Virus record (IMG/VR): IMGVR_UViG_3300017978_000305
Span: 10,231-74,230 of that record
Direction: 5' to 3' (one strand)
Origin: a virus
Length of the DNA stretch: 64,000 nt
Positions 9,464-61,001 of the stretch are shown in pieces; within the stretch, counting starts at the first letter, position 1, and every line of letters begins with the position of its first letter. The notes beneath the pieces are model-generated. The model did not search any database. It saw only the letters and a list, made by a program, of their open reading frames with translations, and was not told the origin of the DNA. A program made the translations under genes and the position numbers.

Positions 9464-10645
9464 ATGATTACTAACACTGGAAAAGGCATTCTTGCCAAAT
9501 ACTTGATTGGACAAGCTCCATCATATGCGTCTTACATTGCTGTTGGTTGTGGGCCTCAGGCAATCAATAGCGAAGATCCTGGCTTTACTACAGAGCAAAA
9601 GGCTGAGTATTCTGCAAAGACTGTACTAGATTTCGAAATGTTTCGTGTTCCAGTAATATCTAGAGGGTATGTCAATGAGGCTGGCTCAGTAAAGCTTATC
9701 TTAACAGCAGAGCTGCCAACAGAAGAGAGATACGAGATAACAGAGCTTGGGGTGTTTTCAGCTGGATCAAATCCATCTGCAGGTGCCTTTGACAGCAAAA
9801 GCGTTTATTCTTTTACTCAGACAGAGGGCTGGGAATATCACACAAGCACTGGCGTTAAAGAGATTCCCACAGTATATGACCCTCTAGATAATGGAGACAA
9901 CATTATAACTGGGGAGTATTCTGTTAATGGTCAGTTTGTGGAAACTCCAGTGTTCCATACAAATGCAGACAACAGAACGTTTACAAATACAGCCAGAGTT
10001 AGCAGAAATGAGCGTTGCCGATTTTTGAATAACATAGTTATGATGGTTGGTAATGACTCCGTGCTTTCTAAGAATCCTGATGGATCAATTGATGTAGAGT
10101 CGGGAAACCACATTCACGTAACCAATGCATCCTTTAACTTTAATAAAAACGCTCCTACCGATGAGCTACGTCTAGCATTTTCGCTTATAAACAAGGGGTC
10201 TAGTTCTGAAACAAGTCCAGACAACGTAAAGATTTTAGTAGAGTTTTCTTCATCTGACACGTCCTCCTCTGGAGAGTACGCACAATTCTATATTGATATT
10301 GATAATGATTCTTTTAACGGAGACGCAGATCAGTCTGCTGACTTTGACTCTAATAGATACTTCGTTGTTTCAAAGCAGCTCCAGGATCTTTACTATACTC
10401 CAGGATTTAACTGGGACCTTGTAACAACTGTAAGGGTGTATGCCTCTGTAGAGTCCAACGGTGCAGCCTCTGATGAGTTCTATGTAGGGCTAGATGCAAT
10501 TAGGCTAGAAAACCTATCTACTAATAATCCACTTTATGGGCTCACTGCCTATTCTGTTGTGAAGACAGATGGAGCACTGCCAATTGTAAAGCTTGCCAAC
10601 ACTTCAAGCTTTATAGAGTTTAGAATTTCTGTGGGTGTGGAATAG
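9464..10645 (+). CDS. Putative tail/baseplate protein
   Basis: 393 aa; N-terminal 'MITNTGKGILAKYL...YIAVG' resembles baseplate/tail-fibre attachment N-termini. Confidence 0.5.
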   Translation: MITNTGKGILAKYLIGQAPSYASYIAVGCGPQAINSEDPGFTTEQKAEYSAKTVLDFEMFRVPVISRGYVNEAGSVKLILTAELPTEERYEITELGVFSAGSNPSAGAFDSKSVYSFTQTEGWEYHTSTGVKEIPTVYDPLDNGDNIITGEYSVNGQFVETPVFHTNADNRTFTNTARVSRNERCRFLNNIVMMVGNDSVLSKNPDGSIDVESGNHIHVTNASFNFNKNAPTDELRLAFSLINKGSSSETSPDNVKILVEFSSSDTSSSGEYAQFYIDIDNDSFNGDADQSADFDSNRYFVVSKQLQDLYYTPGFNWDLVTTVRVYASVESNGAASDEFYVGLDAIRLENLSTNNPLYGLTAYSVVKTDGALPIVKLANTSSFIEFRISVGVE

Positions 10646-11067
10646 TGGCAACTCCTGGAATCAAAAATGTAATTGTCTTGAAGCAGGATCTTCCTGCGGT
10701 AAATTCAGACAATCAGTATACTGTTAGATATCGTATAGTTACAGATGACCGTAACAGGTATTCAGAGTGGTCTCCAATATTTTTGGTTAACGGAAACTCT
10801 GTTACACAGCTAGACGCAGATGCATCCGTTAATGGCAGAGTAATATCTATTGTCTGGAGTGATCCAGAGCCAAGAGCAGGCTATGACGTATTCGTAAAGT
10901 TTGATAATGGAGAATATTACTACCATGGAAAATCTGTCACCACTAACTATTCTTTGATTAGCCAAGGCACAACCTCATTTAAATTCTTGATCCAGATTGA
11001 GAGTATAGAAAAGCAAATTAACGAATCAATACAAATCTATGAATCAGAAGTGATTCCTCTGGTATAA
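10645..11067 (+). CDS. Putative structural protein (Ig/FN3-like beta sandwich)
   Basis: 140 aa with 'YTVRYRIV...SEWSP' FN3-like pattern; in the tail operon. Confidence 0.4.
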   Translation: MATPGIKNVIVLKQDLPAVNSDNQYTVRYRIVTDDRNRYSEWSPIFLVNGNSVTQLDADASVNGRVISIVWSDPEPRAGYDVFVKFDNGEYYYHGKSVTTNYSLISQGTTSFKFLIQIESIEKQINESIQIYESEVIPLV

Positions 11068-11085
11068 TTTTCTTAGGAGAAAAAC

Positions 11086-11538
11086 ATGGCAAACATCCCA
11101 GTACCAGAGCGTGGTCAACCACTAGACCTTACTTATATCTATCAGCTTGCGAACGCTGTAAACCAGCTGTCCCTTCAGTCTGCATATTCTGCTAACAAGT
11201 TTGTTTCAATTGAAACACCAGCAGCAAACGTTGGAAGACAAGACGTTAAGATTACTGACAGCAGAATTGTGGGTGGGTATCAGCAGCTTGCACCTAACAG
11301 TAACGTAACTGCAGGATCATCTGTTGATTTTGCATACAACTTTCCAGGTGCTGACTTTAAGTATCCACCAATTGTCACCGCCACTCCAGTAAATATTTCT
11401 GGCACAGAGGCAGGTAGTGATGTGTCTGTAATTATTAAGCTTATTACTACTTCACGAGTTGAGGGAGTTGTTAAGTTTGGCACTAGCGGAACCGCTTCTG
11501 TTGGAATTAACCTAATCGCTGTAGGTGTGCCTAACTAG
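11086..11538 (+). CDS. Putative tail fibre/tip protein (H-type-lectin-like C-terminus)
   Basis: 150 aa, AGGAG RBS; 'FAYNFPGADFKYPPIVTAT...W/I.AVG' pattern of short tail-fibre tip domains. Confidence 0.4.
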   Translation: MANIPVPERGQPLDLTYIYQLANAVNQLSLQSAYSANKFVSIETPAANVGRQDVKITDSRIVGGYQQLAPNSNVTAGSSVDFAYNFPGADFKYPPIVTATPVNISGTEAGSDVSVIIKLITTSRVEGVVKFGTSGTASVGINLIAVGVPN

Positions 11539-12614: not shown

Positions 12615-13827
12615 CGTAGAAGACAGAATAATCTCTGCAGTATTAGAGGATAAGCAGCTTCATGTTTTGTTGCAGGCTAACGTTGAGTCTTTGTTAAAAA
12701 CTCACGGAGACATTTGGCAATTCATTCGCAAGTATGCAGAGCTCAATGGATCTGTTCCACCTACATCTTTGGTTGTAGAAAAGTTTAGAGACTTCTCTCC
12801 TGTCGAAGGTATCGGTGCAACAAAGCATCACCTAGAAGAGCTTCAGGCAGAGTATCTTCAGAATAGCTTAAAGGAAATCCTAGTTTCTGCAGCAACTGAT
12901 GTGCAGAACGGCAAGGGTGTTCAGGTTCTGGAATCTCTTATCACAAAAACATCTGAGCTCAAGAAGAACACGTCTGTTATTCGTGATATCGATGTTACGG
13001 ATCTAGAGTCTGCAGTGGCATACTATGAGCATGTTCAGAAGCAGCAAGAGCTAGGAACTATTGGTATCAAGACTGGGCTTCCAGGATTTGACAACTACCT
13101 TCCTGCTGGCATTATGCCAGGTCAGTTGGGTGTTATGCTTGCTTATCCAGGTATTGGAAAGTCTTGGCTATCTCTATACTTTGCAGTACAGGCATGGAAG
13201 TCAGGCAAGTCTCCTATGGTAATCAGCCTTGAGATGAGCGAGACAGAAGTTCGTAACCGTGTCTTTGCAATTATGGGTGAGGGTCTATGGTCACATAGAA
13301 AGCTTTCCAACGGTCAGATGAATATTGATGACCTAAAGCGTTGGCACGAAAAGACACTTAAGGGCAAGCCAGAGTTCCACATCATTTCTAATGATACTGG
13401 TGGAGATATTACTCCATCTGTATTGCGTGGAAAGATTGACCAGTACAAGCCTGACTTTGTCGTAGTTGACTACTTGCAGCTCATGTCTCCGAATCAAAAG
13501 GCAGACAACGAGACGGTACGTATGAAGAACCTATCTCGTGAGCTAAAGCTTATGGCTATTTCAGAGGAAGTCCCAATCATTGCAATCTCCTCAGCGACTC
13601 CAGACGATGTTACAAAGCTAGATACTGTTCCTACATTGGGGCAGACAGCTTGGTCACGTCAGATCGCATACGATGCTGACTGGGTCCTTGCTCTAGGTCG
13701 TGGAACAAACTCTGACATCATTGAGTGTGTTTTTAGAAAGAATCGTAATGGCTTTATGGGAGACTTCCTGGTTCAGGTTGACTTCGATAAGGGCTGGTAT
13801 CACTATAAAGACTTTGAAGATAAGTAG
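12607..13827 (+). CDS. dnaB: Replicative DnaB-like helicase
   Basis: Walker A 'AYPGIGKS', 'SLEMS', Walker B 'VVVDYLQLM', 'IAYDADWVL', 'KNRNG'. Confidence 0.92.
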   Translation: MANVEDRIISAVLEDKQLHVLLQANVESLLKTHGDIWQFIRKYAELNGSVPPTSLVVEKFRDFSPVEGIGATKHHLEELQAEYLQNSLKEILVSAATDVQNGKGVQVLESLITKTSELKKNTSVIRDIDVTDLESAVAYYEHVQKQQELGTIGIKTGLPGFDNYLPAGIMPGQLGVMLAYPGIGKSWLSLYFAVQAWKSGKSPMVISLEMSETEVRNRVFAIMGEGLWSHRKLSNGQMNIDDLKRWHEKTLKGKPEFHIISNDTGGDITPSVLRGKIDQYKPDFVVVDYLQLMSPNQKADNETVRMKNLSRELKLMAISEEVPIIAISSATPDDVTKLDTVPTLGQTAWSRQIAYDADWVLALGRGTNSDIIECVFRKNRNGFMGDFLVQVDFDKGWYHYKDFEDK

Positions 13828-38788: not shown

Positions 38789-39551
38789 TCCTAACTACAT
38801 AAAGTTTGTGCCTGCCTTTAGGGAGCCAGGGAACAGGCTGTCTCCTCCAGAACCAGCAGTTAGGCATGTTCCAGAATGGTATAGAAGCCTTGCAAAGTTT
38901 GAGAGGTCAAATGATGACAAGACTCTTTCGCCTGTAAATAGCCTAGGCACTGATGGTGCTCAGGTTGCCACTAAAATGTGCATGCCATTCTTTGATGCCA
39001 TCACTGCAGGGTACCAGTATGTTCTTGAAGATGACTTGTACGTAGACCTAGATGCAGAAGGAAAGCCTATCCTATCCTGGAAGGGAGAGGTTATGGTTGT
39101 TGACAAGCGTCCAACAATTGAGGTCCCTGTCCCAGACAACTGTCATCCAATACACTACGGATGGAGGATGAATTGGTATTACGAAACCCCTCCTGGATAC
39201 TCTGTACTGATAACTCATCCAATGAATAGGCATGATCTACCCTTTTATACTTTATCTGGAATTGTCGAGTCTGACATATGGGGTCTACCAGTGTTCACTG
39301 CATTCTTTTTAAAAAGAAACTTTCGTGGGGTAATTCCAAAGGGCACGCCAATATTCCAGGTCATTCCATTCAAGAGAGAAGCGTGGGAGCTACAGGTAGT
39401 TGACAACGACGAAGAGCTAGAAAAGCACGAGGTCATGGCAGAAAACAGAAGGTCTCTACTTTATGGTTACTACAAAAAGACTGCTTGGAGAAAAAAGATC
39501 TTTGGAGTATTTGGTAAAAGGGTAAAGGATGTTAATCATGACGACGATTGA
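38781..39551 (+). CDS. DUF6065-like protein 2
   Basis: 'PAVRHVPEWY', 'KMCMPFFDAITAGY', 'KGTPIFQVIPFKREAW'; paralogue of the upstream ORF. Confidence 0.55.
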   Translation: MTDPNYIKFVPAFREPGNRLSPPEPAVRHVPEWYRSLAKFERSNDDKTLSPVNSLGTDGAQVATKMCMPFFDAITAGYQYVLEDDLYVDLDAEGKPILSWKGEVMVVDKRPTIEVPVPDNCHPIHYGWRMNWYYETPPGYSVLITHPMNRHDLPFYTLSGIVESDIWGLPVFTAFFLKRNFRGVIPKGTPIFQVIPFKREAWELQVVDNDEELEKHEVMAENRRSLLYGYYKKTAWRKKIFGVFGKRVKDVNHDDD

Positions 39552-40347
39552 TGTAATTATTTATTCTTTTAAAAATAAAAACTTGCCAAAGGTTGTAGAG
39601 TCTGTACTAAACAATACTAGCAGTGATGTAAAAATTTATGTATATGATCAGCATCCACTGTTGAGAGAGCATCTGTTTGTGGATGAGCGAGTTTCTTATA
39701 CTCATATTTTTTGGGACTGGATATATTCGCCAGCAACATTTAAAGTAAAGGCCATAAACAAATCATCTTCCGAATACATATTATTTTTATCTGACGACAT
39801 TTTGCTTTCTGATAATTGGGATGTAGAGTGTCTGGCACAAATAGCCAGTGTCCCAGACAGCTTAATATCTGGAATCGGCAAGCCATCTGTAAAAAAGAAA
39901 GATTTGTTTTCTATATCTGTTGACTACTCTACTTCACAAAGCTTTGACGAAACAATTCTAGTATCCAAAAACTTTTTGTTCGGGTCAAGAAAAGTCATTA
40001 AAAGAATATCATACCCGTCTGACGTTAAGTATTTTGGGGAAGACGAGCTACTATCCTTTAGGTTTTTTCACAGCGGAACCAAGGTATTTTCAGCTCCATC
40101 CAGCCTAGGTGAAGATCTTAAAGAAAGAACCCTGGAGACAAAGTATCACACCTTCTCTTTAGAGCACAAGTATAATAAAATATTTAAAGAAATTAGCAAT
40201 GAGTTTTGGATCGCTCTAGGCTTTGATAGCTGCCCAATCATACCATTACCATACAATGCGGATGATGTTTCTTACAATCCAAACCAAATAGACTTCAATG
40301 ATTTAGATTCTAGAAAATTTATATCTAACATCAAAGCCATTTACTGA
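39538..40347 (+). CDS. GT-A fold (GT2-like) glycosyltransferase
   Basis: 'IDVIIYSF', 'YILFLSDDILL' (DxD-like), 'YFGEDELLSFR'. Confidence 0.6.
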   Translation: MTTIDVIIYSFKNKNLPKVVESVLNNTSSDVKIYVYDQHPLLREHLFVDERVSYTHIFWDWIYSPATFKVKAINKSSSEYILFLSDDILLSDNWDVECLAQIASVPDSLISGIGKPSVKKKDLFSISVDYSTSQSFDETILVSKNFLFGSRKVIKRISYPSDVKYFGEDELLSFRFFHSGTKVFSAPSSLGEDLKERTLETKYHTFSLEHKYNKIFKEISNEFWIALGFDSCPIIPLPYNADDVSYNPNQIDFNDLDSRKFISNIKAIY

Positions 40348-40374: not shown

Positions 40375-40977
40375 ATGAGCCACAGAATAACCGTAATTGA
40401 TAACTTTATCACACCAGAAGATGCAGAGACTTTGATCAGAGAGCAGATGAGCCCCTCTGAGGTAAACCCTTATCCAGAGTACTATGCCAAAAGGTTTGGT
40501 GGCACAGCCTTTCCATACAACAAGACTGTTATGGATCTTTTAATTAAGTATGGGCATAAGTCCAACGAGGTCCACAGAGATGTAAATGGATTTGTTAATC
40601 CAATATATGTATTTAAGGCTTTTGGTTCTTGGTGGAATCCAGGAACTAAGGGTGACTTGCACCTAGATGCACAAGATCCAGAGCCATGGATTGAGTGGAG
40701 CACAATTATCTATCTTAACGATCCATCTGAGTATGAGGGTGGAGTAATCTATTTCCCTAATCAGGAGTTTGAGTATAAGCCTAGGAAGTATTCTGCTGTG
40801 TTCTTCCCAAGTGCAGGTTCCGAATATATTCATGGAATAACTACAATCACTAGTGGCAAGAGGCACACTGCTCTTTACATGCACACAAGCATTCCTCAGC
40901 ATGCAGATCCAGACTTTCACTCAGAGCAAGAGCGAGCTGTCTGGAACGCTAAAGAGCACCCAAACACAAGAAAGTAA
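40375..40977 (+). CDS. Prolyl-4-hydroxylase-like 2OG-Fe(II) oxygenase
   Basis: 'LHLDA', 'IIYLND...YEGG', 'YIHGI...GKRH'. Confidence 0.85.
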   Translation: MSHRITVIDNFITPEDAETLIREQMSPSEVNPYPEYYAKRFGGTAFPYNKTVMDLLIKYGHKSNEVHRDVNGFVNPIYVFKAFGSWWNPGTKGDLHLDAQDPEPWIEWSTIIYLNDPSEYEGGVIYFPNQEFEYKPRKYSAVFFPSAGSEYIHGITTITSGKRHTALYMHTSIPQHADPDFHSEQERAVWNAKEHPNTRK

Positions 40978-40980
40978 GTT

Positions 40981-42393
40981 ATGAAGATTTTTGGGTATAA
41001 CGAAACCTCTCATGATGCTGCTGCAGCTTTGATTGACGGACCGTCTATTCTATTCGCAGGGCACGCAGAAAGATATAGCAAGACTAAGAATGATTGGTAT
41101 GTAAATAGCGAACTTGTGCAGGATGCTGTATCTTATGGAGTACCAGACAAGATAGCGTATTACGAAAAGCCATTGTTAAAAAAGCTTAGGTTGCTACTCC
41201 GTGGCGGTGCAGCTGACTGGAAGCCCTCTATAAAGTACAACAAGTCTTTTGAGCATCACTATGCTCACGCAGCTGCAGGGTACTACACAAGCCCATTTCA
41301 GGATGCTATAGTCGTTGTACTAGATGCAATTGGAGAGTTTACAACCTCTAGTGTTTGGCAAGCTAATGGAGAAGAGATAAAGCTATACAAGAAGTGGTCA
41401 TATCCATACAGCTTTGGGCTATTCTACTCGGCATTCACTGACCTTATTGGTCTCAAGCCAAACGAAGAAGAGTATATCATGATGGGCATGGCTGGCTATG
41501 GAGATGCAGAAAAGTATTATGATAAAGTTGGGGATTACTTTCCAAGCGTCTACACTCAAAAGTATAACTTTCATAAAGGTATTTGGGATTGGGGTCAAGA
41601 GATATCTGAGCAAGATAGGTTTGACATTGCAGCAGCAGTTCAAGCAGTCTATGAGGATAGGCTTTGGGACTTTATGTTTGCCATGAGGCAAGAGCTTCGC
41701 AGCCCGAACCTGGTTTTCATGGGTGGCTGTGCATTAAACAGCAAGGCCAACACCCTTTTGTGGGAGCTGTTCTCTGATGTCTGGATTATGCCAAACCCAG
41801 GAGACGCTGGTTCATCACTAGGTGCAGCAGCTGCTATGTATGGAAAGCATTTAGACTGGAAGGGTCCATACCTTGGATATGATCTTGGAGGAGAGTATCC
41901 AGTAGAAGAAATATTCAAAGAGCTTATGGAGAATCAAATTGTTGCAGTAGCTACTGGACGTGCAGAGTTTGGTCCAAGAGCACTAGGCAACAGAAGTATT
42001 CTGGCTGATCCACGTGACCCTAATATTAAAGATAAGGTTAACAGGATTAAGAAGCGAGAGCTCTTCAGACCATTCGCACCAGTCATTATGGCAGAGCATG
42101 CATCTGAGTGGTTTGATATGGACTATGAATCTCCTTACATGCAGTACACGCCAAAATGTCTGAAGCCTGACTTAATCCCATCTGTCGTTCACGTTGATGG
42201 AACTTCCAGGGTACAAACAGTAACAGCAGAGCAACACCCAGGGTTGTATCAGGTTCTTAAAAAGTTTTACGAGGAAACTGGAGTTCCAGTTCTACTCAAC
42301 ACTAGCTTGAACATAAAGGGACAGCCACTACTAAATGATGAGCATGATATAATTGCTTGGGAAAAACAATATAAGACAAGGATTGTACGATGA
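40981..42393 (+). CDS. NodU/CmcH-family carbamoyltransferase
   Basis: 'HDAAAAL', 'AERYSKTK', 'HHYAHAAAGY', 'VLDAIGE', 'GGCALN', 'GRAEFGPRALGNRSILADP', 'NTSLN'. Confidence 0.93.
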   Translation: MKIFGYNETSHDAAAALIDGPSILFAGHAERYSKTKNDWYVNSELVQDAVSYGVPDKIAYYEKPLLKKLRLLLRGGAADWKPSIKYNKSFEHHYAHAAAGYYTSPFQDAIVVVLDAIGEFTTSSVWQANGEEIKLYKKWSYPYSFGLFYSAFTDLIGLKPNEEEYIMMGMAGYGDAEKYYDKVGDYFPSVYTQKYNFHKGIWDWGQEISEQDRFDIAAAVQAVYEDRLWDFMFAMRQELRSPNLVFMGGCALNSKANTLLWELFSDVWIMPNPGDAGSSLGAAAAMYGKHLDWKGPYLGYDLGGEYPVEEIFKELMENQIVAVATGRAEFGPRALGNRSILADPRDPNIKDKVNRIKKRELFRPFAPVIMAEHASEWFDMDYESPYMQYTPKCLKPDLIPSVVHVDGTSRVQTVTAEQHPGLYQVLKKFYEETGVPVLLNTSLNIKGQPLLNDEHDIIAWEKQYKTRIVR

Positions 42394-43034
42394 ATTATGA
42401 AATTTTAGACTTAGGTCTTGTTTACTACAAAGACATTATCAAGGATCCAGACAAGATCATTAATAGCATTGAGTCTCTTGATGAAAGGTTTATGTCTAAC
42501 GAACACAAAGACGCAGAAACTTTTGTGAAGCCATGGACCCCATGGTCTTATGGAGAAACAATTTTTAATATGCAAAAGTTTTTTCCAGAGTCTCATGAGA
42601 TTAGCAACACTGACTACTATGCAACAGAGATGAAGGAGATTGCAAACAGTCTCTATGGATCTTTGCACGAAGCATACACACACTATTCTGAAGTGATCTA
42701 TCCGTTTGCAAAGAACAATATTAAGTCTAGAGAGTATAGCATCCATCTTCTAAAGTATGGCGTTGGTGGCCACTTGCCAGCACACCAGGACCAGGGGGTT
42801 TCTACCAGAGTTCTTTCGTCTGTGATGTATCTAAACGATAACTATGATGGTGGAGAGATTGAGTTCTCTCAGTCAGGGGTAAAGATTAAGCCAGAGGCAG
42901 GAAGCATAATCTTCTTCCCATCTAACTTCCTTTATGTCCACGAGGTTCACCCAATCACTGCTGGATTTAGATATTCTATGCCACACTGGTATCACAATAC
43001 AAAGCAAATGCTCACGTCGAATGGCGATGAGTGA
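42390..43034 (+). CDS. Prolyl-4-hydroxylase-like 2OG-Fe(II) oxygenase
   Basis: 'PAHQD', 'VMYLNDNYDGGE', 'HEVHPITAGFRY'. Confidence 0.85.
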   Translation: MNYEILDLGLVYYKDIIKDPDKIINSIESLDERFMSNEHKDAETFVKPWTPWSYGETIFNMQKFFPESHEISNTDYYATEMKEIANSLYGSLHEAYTHYSEVIYPFAKNNIKSREYSIHLLKYGVGGHLPAHQDQGVSTRVLSSVMYLNDNYDGGEIEFSQSGVKIKPEAGSIIFFPSNFLYVHEVHPITAGFRYSMPHWYHNTKQMLTSNGDE

Positions 43035-44474: not shown

Positions 44475-44732
44475 ATGATTATGAATGAAACTCTAGACAC
44501 TAAGAATGAAATCCAGCCACTATCAGCATTAGACAGGTGTGACTACTCTGCCTGCAGTGCACAAGCTTACGTTAGAGCAATCGGAGTCACAGGAGACTTG
44601 CTGTTCTGCTCTCATCACTACAATAAAATTACACAAACCCCTAGTGGCCTAGAGAAGATGAACAACTTTGCCTATCAGATTATTGACGAAAGAGATAGGC
44701 TGATAGAGAACAGATTGGTTGGGGAAAACTAA
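44475..44732 (+). CDS. Small Cys/His protein (DUF7455-like)
   Basis: 'DRCD...CSAQAYV...LLFCSHHY'. Confidence 0.55.
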   Translation: MIMNETLDTKNEIQPLSALDRCDYSACSAQAYVRAIGVTGDLLFCSHHYNKITQTPSGLEKMNNFAYQIIDERDRLIENRLVGEN

Positions 44733-45499
44733 TGATTATTCAGTTTATAGGTTTGCCAGGAGCAGGCAAGACAACAATTGCAGATGCCCTGAGAGATAGG
44801 ATTAATGGACTACACATTAATGCAGATGATGTGCGGAATGGAATTAGCAGAGACCTTGGTTTCTCTATTGAAGATAGAATTGAGAATGCTCGTAGGCTAG
44901 GAGAGCTTGCTAGACTAATGGAGCGTAAGCAAGACAAGCCAGTAATCGTTGACTTTGTTGCTCCTACTGAGGCTACAAGACTAGCCTTTGGACCTGCAGA
45001 CATCGTTGTGTGGGTAGATACGATTAGCTCTAGCAGGTTTGATGATACGAATGCCATGTGGGAAGAGCCAAAACAATACGATCACAGGATTACAAATACT
45101 GGAGATAATCATCAGGATCAGATCTCAACAAGGGCATTTACTATTATTCAAAAGTTTAACCTGTTTGATTGGAAAGCAGATACCGTGCTAATGCTTGGTA
45201 GGTACCAGCCTTGGCACGAGGGCCACAGGGCATTGTATGATGAGGGAACCAAGAGGGCAAAGCAGGTTGTCGTTGGTGTTAGGCACACAAAGGGGATGAC
45301 AGAGAAAGATCCTCTAACTTATGAGGAGGTCTCAGACTTCGTTAAGCAAGACGTTCCAAATGCAATTCTACTCAAGATGCCAAACTTTAAGCATATAATT
45401 TACGGTAGAGATGTCGGATACTCTGTTGAAAAGATAGATCTTTCTCCAGAGATTGAAGAGATTTCTGCAACACAAAAAAGAAAAGAGATGGGAATTTAA
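44732..45499 (+). CDS. cysC: Adenylyl-sulfate kinase (CysC-like) fused to an HxGH nucleotidyltransferase domain
   Basis: 'GLPGAGKTT', 'ADDVR...DLGFS.EDR.EN.RR' APS-kinase motifs; C-terminal 'GRYQPWHEGH'. Confidence 0.75.
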   Translation: MIIQFIGLPGAGKTTIADALRDRINGLHINADDVRNGISRDLGFSIEDRIENARRLGELARLMERKQDKPVIVDFVAPTEATRLAFGPADIVVWVDTISSSRFDDTNAMWEEPKQYDHRITNTGDNHQDQISTRAFTIIQKFNLFDWKADTVLMLGRYQPWHEGHRALYDEGTKRAKQVVVGVRHTKGMTEKDPLTYEEVSDFVKQDVPNAILLKMPNFKHIIYGRDVGYSVEKIDLSPEIEEISATQKRKEMGI

Positions 45500-45502
45500 C
45501 TT

Positions 45503-46018
45503 ATGATTATTCAGATGTTTGGAATGGATGTTGCTACAAGAGAGTCCATAGGCAAGGCTGTAGCTAAGTCAGTAGATGCTTGGTACTTGGACAGTAGAGA
45601 TTTGCCAATGGGTCACACACAGCCTCAGCAGGCTAGGTGGCTTCGTGTAGTCTCTAAGATATTTGACAGAAACTACCACGGTGACATTATTACAAGTGGA
45701 TACTTTGCTACAGCTGAAGCTAGAGAGCAGTACAAGATTGAAGAGGGTAGAATTATGCCAGACCTTTCGATCTATGTAGACACAATTCCACACGAAGACT
45801 TTGACAAAATTCCTGGCTATCTTGAGAGGGTTGTTCACAATGTTGATAACCATGCTCAGAATGAGATGCAGGAGCTAAGCTTTTGGGAAGACCCAGAGCC
45901 TACAGAATATGACATTCATATCACTGTTGAGAGCAAGCAGAGAGAAGACTTCTTACAGTTCTGGGTTGACACAATTGTTAAAGAGATCCAGGGCTGGCAT
46001 GACAGAAACAAACGTTAG
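45503..46018 (+). CDS. Degenerate paralogue of the APS-kinase domain (P-loop lost)
   Basis: N-terminus 'MIIQMFGMDVATRESIG' parallels 'MIIQFIGLPGAGKTTIA'; both have 'YVDT/WVDT' and 'W.(E)P..YD'. Confidence 0.5.
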   Translation: MIIQMFGMDVATRESIGKAVAKSVDAWYLDSRDLPMGHTQPQQARWLRVVSKIFDRNYHGDIITSGYFATAEAREQYKIEEGRIMPDLSIYVDTIPHEDFDKIPGYLERVVHNVDNHAQNEMQELSFWEDPEPTEYDIHITVESKQREDFLQFWVDTIVKEIQGWHDRNKR

Positions 46019-46208
46019 GTCCATAACAAAAGCACTAACATACAGATTCTGGCAAAGCCTCAATACCTTCTTGATATCTCTTGTTGTTACTGGTAGAATA
46101 GAGATGGCTGCAGCTATTGTAAGCGTAGAAGTTATAGTCAAGATAGTGATTTACTTTTGGCACGAAAGAATCTGGAGCAAGATTAGATGGGGAATAAAGA
46201 ATGTATGA
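45999..46208 (+). CDS. DUF2061-like small membrane protein
   Basis: 'RSITKALTYR...TG...K...YFWHERIW'. Confidence 0.8.
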   Translation: MTETNVRSITKALTYRFWQSLNTFLISLVVTGRIEMAAAIVSVEVIVKIVIYFWHERIWSKIRWGIKNV

Positions 46209-47984: not shown

Positions 47985-48272
47985 ATGCAATCTCACAGAT
48001 GGAAAGAGGCAGCGTCCTGTAAGGATTATGACTGGAATCTATTCTTTGACAAGTATGAAGAAGACACTCTTCTTAGAGGTGCTATTGATCAGCTATGTTC
48101 GGATTGTCCAGTTGCACGACAGTGCTTTGCGGTTGGAGTGTCTCAAAAGGAATGGGGCGTTTGGGGTGGGGTATATCTCGAAGGCGGAAAGATTTCTAGA
48201 GAGTTTAACAATCACAGGAAAAAGCAGCAATGGGCAGAGACTTGGAAGTATCTGACAATGGATAGGAAATAG
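47985..48272 (+). CDS. whiB: WhiB-family Fe-S transcription factor
   Basis: 4 Cys (C...CSDC...C) plus 'GVWGG'. Confidence 0.88.
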   Translation: MQSHRWKEAASCKDYDWNLFFDKYEEDTLLRGAIDQLCSDCPVARQCFAVGVSQKEWGVWGGVYLEGGKISREFNNHRKKQQWAETWKYLTMDRK

Positions 48273-50361: not shown

Positions 50362-51090
50362 TTAATAAGTAGGCCAGTTAGTTCTCATAAATTCTTGTGA
50401 CAAAACTTTAGACAGCTTAGGCTGGTAGTATTTGTTAGGATCTATATACTTTACCCTAGTACCACGCTCTTCAGGTGTCATCTGATTAAAGAAGCTTACA
50501 AGAGTAATTCTTGGATTGCCACCAGTAACAGGAGTTACAAAGTGCTCATAGCTGTATCCAGCTGGGAACAAGAATAGCTGATTAGCCTTTGGCTTAATCT
50601 GTACACCAAAGTGCATAAAGTTAAGCTCACCACCCTCATAGTCATCATTGGGATAGTACACCATCGAAACAGTTCTTGGTGTTGCAAAGGAGTCGTCTGG
50701 ATGCATTCCAAAGAACTCTCCAGTGCCTGCAAACTTTGTAATTCTTAGGTCCTCACGGCTGTGTGGGTCCACATTCCAGTGGTACAAATAAGAGTCAATA
50801 ACTTCAGAGAGGGCATCTTCAATCTCACTGTGGTGATCTAGCCAACATGTTTTGCTCTTCTTGCCAGTTTCTTGATCTAGATAGTCTTCTCTGACCCATG
50901 GCTTATCTAGCTTAGTTGCTTCATTCTCCCAGAACTCATCTGTGTCCAGCTTTTCAAAAAACTTCATGGCATCAGGCCATACATTGCTATAGATATGCAC
51001 ACCTGGAATCGGTGACTCATAACTAAACTTGTTGCCTGCTTGGGAAGTTGTGACGTTATTATTAGCGTCCAGTATCTTTTCACTGTTCAT
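50362..51090 (-). CDS. Prolyl-4-hydroxylase-like 2OG-Fe(II) oxygenase
   Basis: 'MHPDD', 'YYPNDDYEGGE', 'YEHFV...PR'. Confidence 0.82.
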   Translation of the reverse strand: MNSEKILDANNNVTTSQAGNKFSYESPIPGVHIYSNVWPDAMKFFEKLDTDEFWENEATKLDKPWVREDYLDQETGKKSKTCWLDHHSEIEDALSEVIDSYLYHWNVDPHSREDLRITKFAGTGEFFGMHPDDSFATPRTVSMVYYPNDDYEGGELNFMHFGVQIKPKANQLFLFPAGYSYEHFVTPVTGGNPRITLVSFFNQMTPEERGTRVKYIDPNKYYQPKLSKVLSQEFMRTNWPTY

Positions 51091-55655: not shown

Positions 55656-55688
55656 ACGGTATAATTATACCAAGGAAGTTTGAGAGTT

Positions 55689-56390
55689 ATGAAAAAAGAC
55701 CTAACATTTGTGTATATTTGTAGAGCTGGAGATAATGAAGAGTTGCGATACTCTATAAGATCAGTTCTGCACTTTTTCCCAACCGCTAAAATCTGGGTAG
55801 TTGGAGAGCCACCCAAATGGTATGATGGCGACTACATTAAGGTCAAGCAGACTGGAACAAAGTATGGGAACGCCTATAGAAACTTATCTATCATAGCTTC
55901 CAGCCCTCAGCTTCCAGAAGAGATAATTATCATGAACGATGACTTCTATATAATAGGTGAGGTTGAAAGCTTTGGTCCATTCCACGAGGGCAGCCTAATT
56001 GACAAATACAATCTATACTTTGATACCTACCAAATGTCTTCATATACTAAGAAACTATTTGAAACATACAATAGGCTAAGGAAGATGAAGTTTGATGATC
56101 CTAAGTCTTATGAGCTACACGTACCTATTACGGTAGAGAGAAGTAAGTTATCTAGAGTTATGAAGTATGAGAACCTGCTATGGAGATCAATGTATGGAAA
56201 CATGTTTGAGCTAAAGGGAGAACAGATGCAGGATGTTAAGGTTTATACCACGGTAAAGATGAACTTTAAAAACTATGACTATAAGAATATAACATCACCA
56301 TTTATATCTAGTGACGACTCTTCATTCGAGATACTAAGAAGATCTATACTGTCAAAGTTGTTTAAGAAGAAAACCAAATACGAAAAATAA
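55689..56390 (+). CDS. Stealth-like (sugar-phosphate transferase-like) protein
   Basis: 'ELRYSIRSV...IWVVG..PKW' and 'IIMNDDFY' resemble Stealth conserved region 2. Confidence 0.5.
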   Translation: MKKDLTFVYICRAGDNEELRYSIRSVLHFFPTAKIWVVGEPPKWYDGDYIKVKQTGTKYGNAYRNLSIIASSPQLPEEIIIMNDDFYIIGEVESFGPFHEGSLIDKYNLYFDTYQMSSYTKKLFETYNRLRKMKFDDPKSYELHVPITVERSKLSRVMKYENLLWRSMYGNMFELKGEQMQDVKVYTTVKMNFKNYDYKNITSPFISSDDSSFEILRRSILSKLFKKKTKYEK

Positions 56391-56628: not shown

Positions 56629-57342
56629 CTACTCGTAAAGAGCAGCAATCGTCTCTGGGAATGCTTCCTTAGCTAAGGCAAGAACAGCTTCCGCATACTT
56701 CTGAATTTCATACTGAGCATCATGCTCTAGCCTTTGATCCAGGAATGTTAGAATACCCTGCAGAGAAACAGTCCAACGCCAACGTACGTACATTCCGTAG
56801 GCAGGCAAGAACAGTCGTGCAATCTCTGGTGCAATTCCGTCATCCATAGCTTGGTGGTATGCCTCTGTACCCTGCACAACAGCCTCACAGAGCATGTCAA
56901 AGTACTTCTGACCAATCTCTACGTCAACAGGTTCTCCAGACCCCTGCTTGCTGTTCTCAGGCTTAGAACGCCACTCATGAGGCAATGGAATGTAGAACTT
57001 CTCATCCTCAGTAATGTAGCGACGTGATGATTCGTTCCAACCATTTTGTTCGTCAACGTGAGTAGAAGCTACAGCATACTTCCACCACTGTCTTGCAACA
57101 AATAGTGGAGCATATACCTCAAAGGTTAGTGCTGCATGCCTAAATGGTGATGTGTGCTTCTCCCTAATCAAAAAGTTAAGTAGCTTGGCATCACGCTCTG
57201 AGAATGTCTTTGACTCTTTATCGTAAGACACTCTTGCAGCATTTGCCACACTCAGGTCATCCCCAAGGGTATCTACAAGGCGTACATACCCTTCATCCAA
57301 TACCTTTACTGGCTCTGGAAATGTTTTAATAATTGTTGTCAT
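56629..57342 (-). CDS. thyX: FAD-dependent thymidylate synthase
   Basis: 'ARVSY', 'HTSPFRH', 'FVARQW', 'NESSRRY', 'EIARLFLP', 'HAQYEI'. Confidence 0.92.
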   Translation of the reverse strand: MTTIIKTFPEPVKVLDEGYVRLVDTLGDDLSVANAARVSYDKESKTFSERDAKLLNFLIREKHTSPFRHAALTFEVYAPLFVARQWWKYAVASTHVDEQNGWNESSRRYITEDEKFYIPLPHEWRSKPENSKQGSGEPVDVEIGQKYFDMLCEAVVQGTEAYHQAMDDGIAPEIARLFLPAYGMYVRWRWTVSLQGILTFLDQRLEHDAQYEIQKYAEAVLALAKEAFPETIAALYE

Positions 57343-57632
57343 TCTGTTGGCCAATCCCCATCTAGAACCATCATAGCAATGGCACTGTAATTTAACATGT
57401 CTAGGAAAGAGTCACGCAGACTCTCGTTTTCTGGTGTAGCACCGTTGTCAATCAAATGGTTAATCCTGGACATCTTGTCATGCATACGCACACGTAAACC
57501 GTTTAATGGTCCACCTGGAGCAAGAGCAATATTCTTTGGTCCATAGTCAGCCTGCTTCTTTACTAAAATATCTAACGCATAAGCATAGTGCACAGAAGCT
57601 AAATCTTTAAAATCAGCTAGATCTCTAGTCAT
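57339..57632 (-). CDS. Nmad1/DUF1599-like nucleotide-modification-associated protein
   Basis: 'KKQADYG', 'RMHDKMSRI', 'ESLRDSFLDMLNYS'. Confidence 0.75.
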   Translation of the reverse strand: MTRDLADFKDLASVHYAYALDILVKKQADYGPKNIALAPGGPLNGLRVRMHDKMSRINHLIDNGATPENESLRDSFLDMLNYSAIAMMVLDGDWPTE

Positions 57633-57924
57633 TGCTCTCCTCAATCACTGCCACAATATCACGGTATGCAAGGATAAGATAGTCTTCACCATCAAACTGT
57701 ACTTCAGTTCCTTGGTACTTTGCGAAGGCCACCTTGTCACCAACATTTAGGTCTGGCTTCATAAGAACGCCGTTGTCTAGCTCTAGCCCTGGGCCAACTG
57801 CTACAACGATTGCTTCGCTTGGCTTCTCCTCATGCAGTCCTGCAAGGATTAGTCCAGAAGAAGTTGTCTTTTCCTGATCCTTAACAACCTTGACAACTAC
57901 TTTATCATTTAGTGGTTTAATCAT
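57625..57924 (-). CDS. groES: Co-chaperonin GroES
   Basis: 'IKPLNDKVVV', 'SGLIL', 'VVAVGPG', 'VGDKV.FAKY.GTEV'. Confidence 0.95.
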   Translation of the reverse strand: MIKPLNDKVVVKVVKDQEKTTSSGLILAGLHEEKPSEAIVVAVGPGLELDNGVLMKPDLNVGDKVAFAKYQGTEVQFDGEDYLILAYRDIVAVIEESND

Positions 57925-58161: not shown

Positions 58162-58190
58162 AGTATACAGATTTTATGGATTGTTGTCAA
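58162..58190 (-). promoter_or_regulatory. Sigma-A/70-type promoter driving groES-Nmad1-thyX-tRNAs
   Basis: Minus strand TTGACA-17 nt-TATACT. Confidence 0.7.
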
Positions 58191-58408
58191 GCAACTAGGG
58201 CATTAATCTTGTCTGGCTGAAAGCCAGCCCAAGCATCAGATTCAGTGATTACTACTGGGGCAGATTTAAATCCCATAGACAAGATCATCTCAAGAGCAGC
58301 CTCATCTTCGGTAATGTCAACCGTATCGTAATCAATCTCTAGCTTGTTCAGCATTCTTTTAGTCATGTCGCACTGAACACAGGCAGGCTTTACATATACA
58401 GTTGTCAT
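58187..58408 (-). CDS. nrdH: NrdH glutaredoxin-like redoxin
   Basis: 'KPACVQC', 'SAPVV', 'WAGFQPD'. Confidence 0.93.
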   Translation of the reverse strand: MTTVYVKPACVQCDMTKRMLNKLEIDYDTVDITEDEAALEMILSMGFKSAPVVITESDAWAGFQPDKINALVA

Positions 58409-58464: not shown

Positions 58465-59124
58465 CTAGGACAAAAAAGATGCTATTGCAATCTTGGTGCC
58501 AGAAACAACTGCCTCAGCAGAATGGTTATATACATAGTTAGATGGGAACACTATGAGCGAGTTGGCCTTAGGCTTAATCTTCAAGCCAAACCTATGGAAT
58601 GTTATCTCCCCACCCTCGTAATCGTCATTGAGATAGTAGACAACTGAAACAGTTCTTGGTATACCTGGGACGGAATCAATGTGGTCATCAAAGAAATGTC
58701 CAGCACCATACTTCAAAAGCTCTAGCCTTGAGTGCCAAGTCATATAGTTAATCTTATGACGATCAAGGTAATCGTTTTCAATCTTATCAAACATTGGCTT
58801 AATCGCATCGTATATCCTTAAATACCTAATGCTTGATGGGTCTGAGTCTACAAGGGACTGGACCTCTTCCCTCAGATATGGCATTGCTATTGAGAAACAG
58901 TCTCTAATATCTTTGTTTAACTTAGCAGAAGTGTTATTGATTTCTTCGCTAGGGTCTCTGTTAGATGATATCAAGCCTGGATACCACTGCAAGTCATCAG
59001 CAAACACTAGTTCATTAAGATACTCTATATTCTCATGAGCGTTTTCATATACGAGTATGCCTGGGGCTAACTGTATGGGCTGATTAATATCTTCCATTGC
59101 AAGACTTTCTTTGTAGTTGTTCAA
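58465..59124 (-). CDS. Prolyl-4-hydroxylase-like 2OG-Fe(II) oxygenase
   Basis: 'DHID', 'YYLNDDYEGGE', 'YNHSA...GTK'. Confidence 0.85.
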   Translation of the reverse strand: MNNYKESLAMEDINQPIQLAPGILVYENAHENIEYLNELVFADDLQWYPGLISSNRDPSEEINNTSAKLNKDIRDCFSIAMPYLREEVQSLVDSDPSSIRYLRIYDAIKPMFDKIENDYLDRHKINYMTWHSRLELLKYGAGHFFDDHIDSVPGIPRTVSVVYYLNDDYEGGEITFHRFGLKIKPKANSLIVFPSNYVYNHSAEAVVSGTKIAIASFLS

Positions 59125-59632
59125 ATAACATTATAGCATCAGCAAAATTTATATTAGAGCAGGCCTCGACAGCCTTTGAATAATTGTTGGATGATTTGCT
59201 TGATGAAAGGTGCTCAAGATTAACCATATCTTTTTGATTAACATTAGTATTTATAAACTTTGCAGGGGCAATACCAAAGAGATCCAGAATGCTTGCCAAA
59301 GTGTCTGCTGGATTACTAACTAAATTGTCAAAGTCTACAACAATACTGCAATATTGATTAAAATATTTGTAGTTTTCCACATAATCTAACACCAGCTGCT
59401 CAGCAGTCTTTTCGTAATCTATTTCACTCCTGTATTCAGAAAGCATAGCAAGGTAGGAAACTATTGTGTCTTGTGGATTTCTAGCAATTGTGACTATTCT
59501 TTTGCTTTTGTCAAGCTCAGGAAGGTGCGTCTTGGTTACTTTTAGGGATGAGTTTTCTAACAAAAGATTGTTTAAAAAGAAAGATCCAGACCTAGGAAAG
59601 GTAACTAAAACTATTTCTGTTTCATCAAGCAA
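59084..59632 (-). CDS. Sulfotransferase-like protein 1
   Basis: 5'-PSB-like 'TFPRSGSFFL', 'KTH', 3'-PB-like 'ARNPQDTIVS'. Confidence 0.7.
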   Translation of the reverse strand: MLDETEIVLVTFPRSGSFFLNNLLLENSSLKVTKTHLPELDKSKRIVTIARNPQDTIVSYLAMLSEYRSEIDYEKTAEQLVLDYVENYKYFNQYCSIVVDFDNLVSNPADTLASILDLFGIAPAKFINTNVNQKDMVNLEHLSSSKSSNNYSKAVEACSNINFADAIMLFEQLQRKSCNGRY

Positions 59633-60255: not shown

Positions 60256-60453
60256 ATGATATCAAAGAAATGTATAAAATGCAATAGGGAAATGATACGA
60301 ATAGTCTATGGATATCCAGCTCCAGAATTTGAAAACATTTCTAAAGACTTAGGCATGGCCATGGGTGGGTGTCAGCCAGGACCAATAACTCATTTCTGTA
60401 AAATCTGTAAGATATCTTGGTCATCAGACATGGGGTTTGACAACTACAACTAA
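60256..60453 (+). CDS. Small zinc-ribbon protein (CxxC-IxYGYP type) 2
   Basis: 'CIKC...IVYGYP...GGC...HFCKIC'. Confidence 0.65.
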   Translation: MISKKCIKCNREMIRIVYGYPAPEFENISKDLGMAMGGCQPGPITHFCKICKISWSSDMGFDNYN

Positions 60454-61001
60454 ATCGTTGTCTCTAAAACTTTGTGGTAAACCTTTAATGCAGCAGAAAG
60501 ATCTACCCCATCTACTGCTGCATCTAGGAGGCCAACGTACTCTGAGTCCCTAGAAGTTGCTGTGAAATCTTCTCGGCTACGTGCTGGGGTAGGATTAAAG
60601 TGATAACTCTTATGCCCAAATAGATCGCCCAGCTTGGTACATACAGATACCACGTCAGAGACAACCTCATCAAAGTCGCAGACTGGAACCCTTTCTATAT
60701 TTTCATTTGTATAAAAAGATATATAGTCATTGGCATACTGCTCCATTGTTCTTGCTAAGAACAGCACCTTGTCAGTATCATTATTAAAACTATCTGGAAA
60801 GTTAGTCACTACTTTTGACAAAGATAGCAGGGCCATGGATGAGAGGGCATTTTCTGGATTTCTAATAATAGAAAAAGAGTGTGGCTTAGACAGGACATTC
60901 ACGTCATGACTATGCTGAACAACCTTCTTAATGTGTTCGCTATAGTTCTTAACCAGATAGTTTCCACCAGATCTTGGAAAGTAAGAGCAGTAAACCAGCA
61001 T
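60450..61001 (-). CDS. Sulfotransferase-like protein 2
   Basis: 'YFPRSGGNYL', 'HSH', 'IRNPENALSS'. Confidence 0.68.
   Translation of the reverse strand: MLVYCSYFPRSGGNYLVKNYSEHIKKVVQHSHDVNVLSKPHSFSIIRNPENALSSMALLSLSKVVTNFPDSFNNDTDKVLFLARTMEQYANDYISFYTNENIERVPVCDFDEVVSDVVSVCTKLGDLFGHKSYHFNPTPARSREDFTATSRDSEYVGLLDAAVDGVDLSAALKVYHKVLETTI

Follow-up and report, generated by a model that had tools for sequence, protein, structure and literature searches.

A 255-residue kinase–nucleotidyltransferase fusion of a marine phage as a candidate compact PAPS synthase

Organization of the locus

The window analyzed here comprises 64,000 nucleotides (nt) of IMG/VR record IMGVR_UViG_3300017978_000305 (positions 10,231 to 74,230), a 78.8 kb virus contig of a marine phage that is rated 69% complete. 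At window positions 44732–46208, three tightly packed genes on the plus strand encode a fusion protein of 255 amino acids (aa), a P-loop-less paralogue of its kinase half, and a small membrane protein of the DUF2061 family. The fusion joins an N-terminal domain related to kinases of adenosine 5′-phosphosulfate (APS), termed K domain, to a C-terminal miniature nucleotidyltransferase of the HIGH superfamily, termed N domain or mini-NTase. These four elements had been named in a preliminary description of the window, and all of them were confirmed in place. We propose, with a probability of roughly 0.6, that the fusion is a compact bifunctional synthase of 3′-phosphoadenosine 5′-phosphosulfate (PAPS), both activities and their direction being inferred from domain identities, fusions, gene neighborhoods, and phyletic patterns. 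The features central to this proposal are:

44732–45166, plus strand: K domain of the fusion (residues 1–145), a lid-less APS-kinase-like P-loop kinase; proposed APS 3′-kinase
45167–45499, plus strand: N domain of the fusion (residues 146–255), a mini HxGH/ISxT nucleotidyltransferase; proposed sulfate adenylyltransferase
45503–46018, plus strand: K-domain paralogue without a P-loop, 171 aa; possible partner in regulation or scaffolding
45999–46208, plus strand: DUF2061 small membrane protein (PF09834), 69 aa; the longest open reading frame (ORF) begins at 45909
59084–59632, minus strand: compact sulfotransferase, 182 aa, with Pfam Sulfotransfer_1 and Sulfotransfer_3 matches; proposed consumer of PAPS
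60450–61001, minus strand: second, more divergent sulfotransferase-like protein, 183 aa, with a weak Sulfotransfer_1 match and shared motifs

The fusion ORF (44732–45499, plus strand) starts at ATG 44732, which overlaps the stop codon of an upstream DUF7455 gene (TAATG), and the paralogue gene begins 3 nt past the fusion stop. Read from ATG 45999, the DUF2061 gene overlaps the end of the paralogue gene by 20 nt, and its own end overlaps the start of a staphylococcal-nuclease homologue. The upstream gene (44475–44732, plus strand) encodes an 85-aa, Cys/His-rich protein (PF24254, E 3e-13). A DUF7455 gene likewise lies directly upstream of the fusion in two phage relatives with 75% identity (L094/L095), and it may be part of the same operon. 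Megablast comparison of the locus with 50,697 phage records gave zero matches, relatives being found at the protein level only. Contigs that carry relatives of the fusion gene measure 113–120 kb.

The kinase half resembles APS kinases but lacks their lid

Residues 2–83 of the fusion match the Pfam APS_kinase profile PF01583 over positions 4–89 of 152 (E 5e-15, 56.3 bits, cut-off 21.1), and PDB sequence matches align the kinase half to human PAPSS1 as well as to plant, fungal, and bacterial APS kinases (best E 1.5e-9). The AlphaFold model of the whole fusion, built with 32 homologues, has a mean predicted local distance difference test score (pLDDT) of 88.5. In a Foldseek search of this model against the PDB, the best 50 matches are all APS kinases or kinase domains of PAPS synthases (best E 2e-8), together with one fungal ATP sulfurylase that is matched via its APS-kinase-like domain. 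Profile match, fold comparison, and alignment thus agree with the lid-less APS-kinase domain of the preliminary description.

The canonical APS kinase CysC and the K domain have the fold, the P-loop (GLPGAGKT, residues 7–14), the xxD-xxR (D-x-x-R), LGFS, DR, RR, and F-x-x-P motifs, and a second adenine-stacking Phe (F103) in common. Across 32 sequences, GLPGAGKT, R35, F44, R49, R54/R55, F75/P78, and F103 are invariant or nearly so. In contrast to CysC, the kinase half reads NAD in place of the canonical DGD, scores 56.7 bits against the NCBIfam apsK model TIGR00455 (cut-off 138.7), and is devoid of the lid segment (D.KGLYKKAR.G.I, about 15 residues), which is deleted in the alignment with canonical APS kinases. 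This deletion extends to the phage, SAR11, and SAR86 copies, and the lid is present in the canonical kinases that are fused to a mini-NTase in other proteins. A 164-aa kinase variant of a member of the Pelagibacteraceae (L064, 9502–9996, beside aprBA) carries an insertion of about 27 residues exactly at the canonical lid position, which may be an independently evolved lid.

The nucleotidyltransferase half is an NMNAT/PPAT-like miniature

Residues 146–255 of the fusion carry the motifs GRYQPWHEGH (156–165), VRHT, YGRDVGY, and ISATQKR (244–250), of which H162-E-G-H165 and I244-S-A-T...R250 are invariant in the family. The Pfam model CTP_transf_like (PF01467) matches all 21 sampled family members with a best E of 1.5e-6, the copy in the window scoring 20.0–20.2 bits, slightly under the 21-bit cut-off. 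The fused HIGH-superfamily domain recognized earlier by its GRYQPWHEGH motif is hence genuine. Moreover, HxGH, ISxT..R, the Arg of VRDT, and GR.VGY are invariant across very divergent mini-NTases, which argues for catalysis rather than for binding alone.

By sequence and by fold, the domain lies closer to nicotinamide mononucleotide (NMN) adenylyltransferases (NMNATs), NadM included, and to phosphopantetheine adenylyltransferases (PPATs) than to ATP sulfurylases. A profile search of the PDB returned NadM 2qjt as best match (E 3e-5) and also archaeal NMNAT 1f9a, and the archaeal PPAT-like protein 3do8 aligned along the whole length of the domain (E 0.028). In VIA-align comparisons, the model of the isolated domain (pLDDT 86.4) reached Z 9.2 to both NMNAT 1f9a (root-mean-square deviation, rmsd, 2.8 over 102 residues) and PPAT 4nah, compared with Z 7.5 (rmsd 4.8, 114 residues) to ATP sulfurylase 1v47 and Z 4.9–5.7 to other ATP sulfurylases. 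The best 50 Foldseek matches of the isolated domain comprise PPAT, NMNAT, GCT, PanC, and HldC (E 5e-4 to 1e-2) and include no ATP sulfurylase. Likewise, no match to PF01747, the model for ATP sulfurylases of the Sat type, was found in the fusion at E ≤ 0.1. The Sat motif form QxRNPxHxxH/GRDHAG is replaced by an NMNAT-type GRYQPWHEGH, and a domain of about 105 aa in the fusion (about 105–120 aa for the class) has no room for a PUA-like domain. The mini-NTase is thus an NMNAT/PPAT-like miniature rather than a shrunken Sat. These comparisons uphold the HIGH nucleotidyltransferase fold, which the domain shares in general form with ATP sulfurylase, and not a particular closeness to that enzyme. Since its nearest relatives are NadM/archaeal NMNAT and PPAT, any ATP-sulfurylase activity would have arisen separately within the HIGH superfamily.

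This kinship raises two alternatives. Firstly, the fusion could be a NadR-like enzyme of NAD salvage or NADP formation, its N domain acting as NMN adenylyltransferase and its kinase half on nicotinamide riboside or NAD. The motifs GRxQPxHxGH and IS(G/A)T..R and an NP(F/L)T-like loop are common to the mini-NTase, NadM/archaeal NMNAT (2qjt, 1f9a), and NadR. NadM and archaeal NMNAT are also its best matches (GRFQPFHKGH versus GRYQPWHEGH, Z 9.0–9.2), one IMG annotation labels a stand-alone copy NMNAT, and weak matches to AAA_28, the NadR kinase family, occur. However, all scores fall far under the cut-offs of the NMNAT families (19.5, 26.2, and 28.3 bits for TIGR01527, NF002243, and the NadM model NF003786, with cut-offs of 181, 127, and 397), and the kinase half is specifically APS-kinase-like. 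At about 105 versus about 170 aa, the domain is about a third shorter than NMNAT, falling short by about 30–60 residues, and its invariant Arg residues (VR[D/H]T, GR.VGY) are specific to the family. Further, in contrast to NadM and NadR, it was never seen with Nudix or NAD genes and always stands beside, or is fused to, an APS-kinase-type gene; among the annotated neighbors, no NAD gene appears and sulfur genes recur. We consider an NAD enzyme very improbable. It was rejected as the principal interpretation on the grounds that NadD is encoded in four of five module-bearing genomes and that SAR86 has a separate, possibly NadM-like frame of about 370 aa, which was found in most SAR86 genomes searched as a weak match and taken as NadM-like by size only. 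Each of the five genomes would accordingly have either NadD or a NadM-like gene, leaving no gap in NAD synthesis either.

Secondly, the pair could make another 3′-phospho-ADP-X compound, in which X is an anionic group other than sulfate, i.e. a coenzyme A (CoA)-like or new nucleotide cofactor or donor. APS kinase and dephospho-CoA kinase each phosphorylate the 3′-OH of an ADP-X compound, and the N domain aligns with PPAT-like 3do8 at full length and with PPATs by fold. The loss of the lid and the low apsK score could reflect a changed substrate, and phages with the fusion and no sulfotransferase exist. Nevertheless, sulfate in particular is indicated by the bona fide APS kinases to which the mini-NTase is fused and by the neighborhoods with sulfotransferases, cysQ, and aprBA described below, so that we regard this alternative as rather unlikely, if less so than an NAD enzyme. 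CoA itself was rejected as the principal interpretation: all five module-bearing genomes encode canonical CoaD and CoaE, and CoA synthesis therefore has no gap to be filled.

The module is widespread in cells and linked by its gene context to sulfate activation

The family defined by the kinase–nucleotidyltransferase (K–N) module comprises 5,211 proteins at E ≤ 0.001 in a word-indexed search and 4,660 representatives in an exhaustive search. Its members are currently labeled “kinase”, “shikimate kinase”, “NMNAT”, or “hypothetical”, and neither Pfam nor NCBIfam holds a model that describes the mini-NTase or the fusion. PHROG 10255, annotated only as kinase or hypothetical, matches the fusion over its full length (E 3.5e-57) and includes gp32 of Xylella phages Salvo and Sano and a protein of Stenotrophomonas phage DLP_6, which are 35–38% identical to the whole fusion. 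Literature on APS kinase, PAPS, or sulfotransferases of phages, SAR86, and pelagiphages yielded no description of the module.

A profile scan of species-representative genomes located the mini-NTase at no fewer than 480 loci, mostly in Pelagibacteraceae and SAR86, the others lying in further Alphaproteobacteria, Marinimicrobia, Bacteroidota, and Omnitrophota. SAR11 and SAR86 encode the module as two overlapping genes, one for a lid-less kinase of about 136 aa and one for a mini-NTase of about 124 aa, and elsewhere it is fused. The module is consequently not phage-specific and represents a widespread cellular gene pair or fusion.

Among the family representatives, the mini-NTase is also joined to full-length APS kinases, and this in both orders: nucleotidyltransferase before kinase in P0247/P0364, P0299, and P0344, and kinase before nucleotidyltransferase in P0362/P0370 and P0331. 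These kinases score up to 212 bits against Pfam APS_kinase, and P0364 and P0299 pass TIGR00455 with 235 and 220 bits (cut-off 138.7). The gene neighborhoods lead to the same pathway. In phage contigs L007 and L013, the fusion is followed by an ORF of about 130 aa and then by a sulfotransferase of about 190 aa, and an Omnitrophota operon has the order TauE/TSUP, sulfotransferase, sulfotransferase, ADI-like gene, and nucleotidyltransferase–APS kinase fusion. Directly upstream of a split K and N pair (L078) lies CysQ (TIGR01331, 294.8 bits, cut-off 228.8), a place that is filled by a gene of the same BLASTP cluster in six more loci. In L064, the pair is flanked by aprA (TIGR02061, 991 bits), a gene of the AprB cluster, and a QmoC-like gene; the same apr/Qmo clusters occur in six more SAR11 loci, with AprB checked on the member of L068 (PF12139).

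Bifunctional PAPS synthases (human PAPSS1/2, 1x6v; the Aquifex Sat-CysC protein 2gks; CysN/CysC) resemble the fusion in combining an APS-kinase-type domain and an adenylyltransferase of the HIGH superfamily in one polypeptide. They also resemble the fusion family in occurring in both domain orders and in their sulfotransferase and CysQ context. They differ in size, with about 550–630 aa compared to the 255 aa of the fusion. Unlike theirs, the adenylyltransferase half of the fusion has about 105 aa, neither a PF01747 match nor a PUA-like domain, and a descent from the NMNAT/PPAT branch, and its kinase is lid-less.

ORFs of 128 and 135 aa that belong to no known family lie between the nucleotidyltransferase/APS kinase fusion and the sulfotransferase in two unrelated phage contigs (L007, 2975–3361; L011, 10824–11231). 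A further, uncharacterized APS kinase fusion was seen elsewhere. In Pelagibacter HIMB1495 (G001:C2, equal to L101 3956–5050, minus strand), a 364-aa protein combines a full-length APS kinase (118 bits) with about 215 residues without Pfam match, located at the contig end beside a formyltransferase and a PEP-utilising enzyme.

Distribution in SAR86 and SAR11 genomes

The phyletic distribution was followed in 112 genomes, 61 of the SAR86 family (each at least 80% complete) and 51 of the SAR11 family. Many of them are metagenome-assembled genomes (MAGs) or single-amplified genomes, and the tests are uncorrected for shared ancestry. The counts were:

SAR86 (n = 61): mini-NTase 56, Sat 0, CysD 1, Sulfotransfer_1 57
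SAR11 (n = 51): mini-NTase 25, Sulfotransfer_1 24, Sat 3 (all with mini-NTase), CysD 5 (none with mini-NTase)

The sole CysD-bearing SAR86 genome is devoid of a mini-NTase and has a sulfotransferase 4 kb from its CysD. In a complete SAR86 genome with sulfotransferases (G002), the lid-less K gene is the only APS-kinase-like gene. Mini-NTase and sulfotransferase occur together in 16 SAR11 genomes, mini-NTase only in 9, sulfotransferase only in 8, and neither in 18 (odds ratio 4, p 0.025). Mini-NTase and CysD co-occur in none of the 112 genomes (pooled p 3e-4). A corresponding complementarity of Sat and mini-NTase in SAR11 failed, as all three Sat-bearing genomes also carry the mini-NTase. Across the five module-bearing genomes searched for whole pathways, no Sat-type ATP sulfurylase and no CysD above cut-off was found, and three encode Sulfotransfer_1 proteins. 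A preprint states independently that most SAR11 bacteria have no ATP sulfurylase despite AprAB (bioRxiv 10.1101/2022.09.23.509140).

These patterns bear on a further explanation, namely that only the kinase half takes part in sulfate activation by converting APS to PAPS. The mini-NTase would then be a regulatory domain that binds ATP or APS, or would catalyze another adenylyl transfer, either an ADP- or phosphate-dependent sulfurylase reaction or, beside AprBA, the dissimilatory formation of ATP from APS and pyrophosphate (PPi). Fusions and neighborhoods tie the mini-NTase to APS/PAPS metabolism without fixing its reaction, the aprBA neighborhood in SAR11 fits the reverse direction, and the domain, which has no PF01747 match, falls far below the size of all known ATP sulfurylases. 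Yet no other candidate for supplying APS is encoded in the sulfotransferase-bearing SAR86 genomes, and the residues conserved in the mini-NTase speak for catalysis. We judge a kinase-only role in sulfate activation to be unlikely, albeit the strongest of the three alternatives. By virtue of its fusions, its neighborhood, and its complementarity with CysD, the mini-NTase is probably an unrecognized kind of ATP sulfurylase.

Sulfotransferases of the window and of other phages

Both sulfotransferase-like proteins that had been noted at 59–61 kb are real. The protein encoded at 59084–59632 scores 35.7 bits against Sulfotransfer_1 (PF00685, cut-off 22), matches Sulfotransfer_3 as well, and was recovered again by a six-frame genome search. 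Its motifs FPRSGS (5′-PSB loop), KTH (catalytic His), and ARNPQDTIVS (3′-PB) align to the same motifs in human SULT1C3. The protein encoded at 60450–61001 has by itself a weak Sulfotransfer_1 match (E 0.006) and is linked to the first sulfotransferase by BLASTP (E 0.004) and by the motifs FPRSGG and IRNPENALSS, PRSG and RNP..S being common to the two.

Co-occurrence of fusion and sulfotransferase, which the preliminary description had anticipated across phages, holds for the window, for L007 and L013, and for L094/L095, where a sulfotransferase is encoded 1.2 kb upstream of the fusion. It is not universal, since no sulfotransferase of the PF00685 or PF13469 type was found in the complete phages Salvo and DLP_6. 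In Salvo (L001), a gene annotated as cysteine dioxygenase (1792–2487) lies 3.5 kb upstream of the K–N fusion, which may serve host sulfur metabolism in this Xylella phage.

The P-loop-less paralogue

Profile–profile comparison (hhalign) relates the paralogue to the fusion family's kinase half at a probability of 96.4% (E 1.4e-9; BLASTP E 1e-6), in agreement with its earlier recognition as a kinase paralogue without P-loop. GLPGAGKT is replaced by GMDxxxR, and the acceptor-site segment by an invariant LPMGHTQPQQARWLRV. Searches of Pfam, PHROG, NCBIfam, and PDB gave zero matches. Only 93 homologues exist, all at least 59% identical, which assigns the paralogue to one phage clade. In L094/L095, a 169-aa ORF that is taken as the paralogue by size and place only follows the DUF2061 gene rather than preceding it (10765–11477, versus 45503–46208 in the window), and a relative with 58% identity (L003) has DUF2061 and no paralogue.

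A complex predicted for the K domain and the paralogue scored 0.46, compared with 0.01 for the best control, on a scale whose mark is reached by 58 of 80 solved complexes and 2 of 110 mismatched pairs and whose range up to 0.60 holds only 7 of the 80 solved complexes together with both mismatches that passed. Contacts agreed to at least 89% between runs, and the pLDDT of the partner was at least 77. APS kinases are solved homodimers, and the pass may therefore mirror likeness alone. The prediction thus lends weak support to such a complex. A precedent for a possible regulatory role is the ATP sulfurylase of Penicillium chrysogenum (1i2d), which is among the Foldseek matches of the fusion model. 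Here, a dead, allosteric APS-kinase-like C-terminal domain accompanies a sulfate-activating enzyme, as the paralogue does. In contrast to this domain, the paralogue is encoded by a separate gene, is confined to one phage clade, and has its acceptor-site residues replaced by an invariant motif of its own.

The DUF2061 protein and a link to the membrane

The ORF 45909–46208 matches the entire 52-position DUF2061 profile PF09834 (E 8e-16, 58.6 bits, cut-off 23.1), so that the DUF2061-like membrane protein of the preliminary description is borne out. Its likely start is ATG 45999, giving 69 aa, because relatives have 67–68 aa. A DUF2061 gene directly adjoins the K–N module in L003, L094/L095, L015, and L077, the last two being MAG contigs. 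In the metagenomic relatives P0221, P0305, and P0341, a DUF4118 membrane domain precedes the lid-less kinase in the same polypeptide, whether or not a mini-NTase is present, and this connects the module to the membrane a second time and independently. The adjacent DUF2061 genes and the DUF4118 fusions suggest that the module works at the membrane.

No longer protein containing the DUF2061 sequence was retrieved in a search for such forms, a DUF2061 hidden Markov model built from two sequences revealed no DUF2061 fusion among 159 relatives, and Pfam searches of ten N-terminally extended relatives gave DUF4118 and DUF4815 and no DUF2061. In two of five cellular genomes, DUF2061 occurs as a tandem-duplicated protein far from the K–N genes and offers no functional lead. 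The papers found on DUF2061 only list the name.

Proposed function

In the proposed reaction sequence, the C-terminal mini-NTase would adenylylate sulfate (ATP + sulfate → APS + PPi), and the N-terminal lid-less kinase domain would phosphorylate the 3′-OH of APS to yield PAPS. Fusion of both domains would pull the unfavorable first step. PAPS would supply the two compact sulfotransferases of the phage (59084–59632 and 60450–61001), which probably act on a glycan or protein that the products of neighboring glycosyltransferase, oxygenase, and carbamoyltransferase genes synthesize or modify. The paralogue is probably a non-catalytic partner that binds the kinase half or a nucleotide, and the DUF2061 protein probably ties the module to the membrane.

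That a compact enzyme makes PAPS for the phage sulfotransferases is partly supported by independent genomic evidence, namely canonical APS kinases fused to the mini-NTase, genes for sulfotransferases, CysQ, and AprBA nearby, and the SAR86 and SAR11 phyletic patterns, and nothing tested contradicts it. The compact PAPS-forming enzyme feeding sulfotransferases that was envisaged in the preliminary description stands to this extent, with the amendments that its C-terminal domain is not a shrunken ATP sulfurylase and that the module is not a phage speciality. For the regulatory pseudo-kinase envisaged there, the support consists of the fungal precedent and the weak complex prediction. Several observations weigh against a PAPS synthase. 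The kinase half is without lid and far under the apsK equivalog cut-off. The mini-NTase is nearer to NMNAT/NadM and PPAT than to ATP sulfurylase and is without a PF01747 match. Sulfotransfer_1 is missing from 9 of the 25 module-bearing SAR11 genomes and from two soil alphaproteobacterial MAGs with the fusion, and sulfotransferases of the searched families from Salvo and DLP_6. Conversely, four SAR11 genomes with sulfotransferases have neither the module, Sat, nor CysD. The three SAR11 genomes that carry Sat beside the mini-NTase and the uncorrected ancestry of the phyletic tests, with their many metagenome-assembled or single-amplified genomes, count on the same side.

At about even odds, we extend the proposal from the phage enzyme to the family as a whole. 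The mini-NTase would represent a new minimal class of ATP sulfurylase that arose from an NMNAT/PPAT-like ancestor, and together with the lid-less APS kinase it would constitute the “missing” sulfate activation of SAR86 and of about half of SAR11, providing PAPS for sulfation and possibly running in reverse beside AprBA. Capture of the module as a fusion would have allowed many marine and freshwater phages to sulfate targets of their own.

Should the mini-NTase indeed adenylylate sulfate, Sat and CysDN would be joined by a third, very small type of ATP sulfurylase that current annotation has overlooked. This would explain how SAR86 and many SAR11, which are among the most abundant bacteria of the ocean, use PAPS-dependent sulfotransferases, and how SAR11 completes AprBA-linked sulfite oxidation without a recognizable ATP sulfurylase. 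Phages would then bring a self-contained sulfation kit of PAPS synthase and compact sulfotransferases, implying sulfated molecules on the virion or the host surface. In addition, a PAPS synthase of 255 aa would be a handy tool for enzymatic sulfation.

Neighboring genes

Genes of a possible tailoring set occur on both sides of the module:

39529–40347: GT2-like gene
40375–40977, 42390–43034, 50362–51090, and 58465–59124: four genes for 2-oxoglutarate-Fe(II) (2OG-Fe(II)) oxygenases (PF13640)
40981–42393: carbamoyltransferase
55680–56390: Stealth_CR2-like gene

The oxygenase, carbamoyltransferase, GT2-like, and Stealth-like genes may form a large tailoring set that makes the acceptor for sulfation. 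Three further genes lie between the fusion and the sulfotransferases:

56629–57354, minus strand: ThyX (PF02511, E 3e-37)
57625–57924, minus strand: Cpn10/GroES-like ORF
58187–58408, minus strand: small glutaredoxin/NrdH-like ORF

Downstream of the module, the window holds a small Cys-rich, WhiB-like ORF (47985–48272, plus strand). At a similar place downstream of the module, L094 has a 93-aa ORF (12912–13193) with a precomputed Pfam Whib match. Since WhiB genes typify actinobacteria and the phages that infect them, this phage may have a marine actinobacterium as its host, and neither SAR11 nor SAR86.

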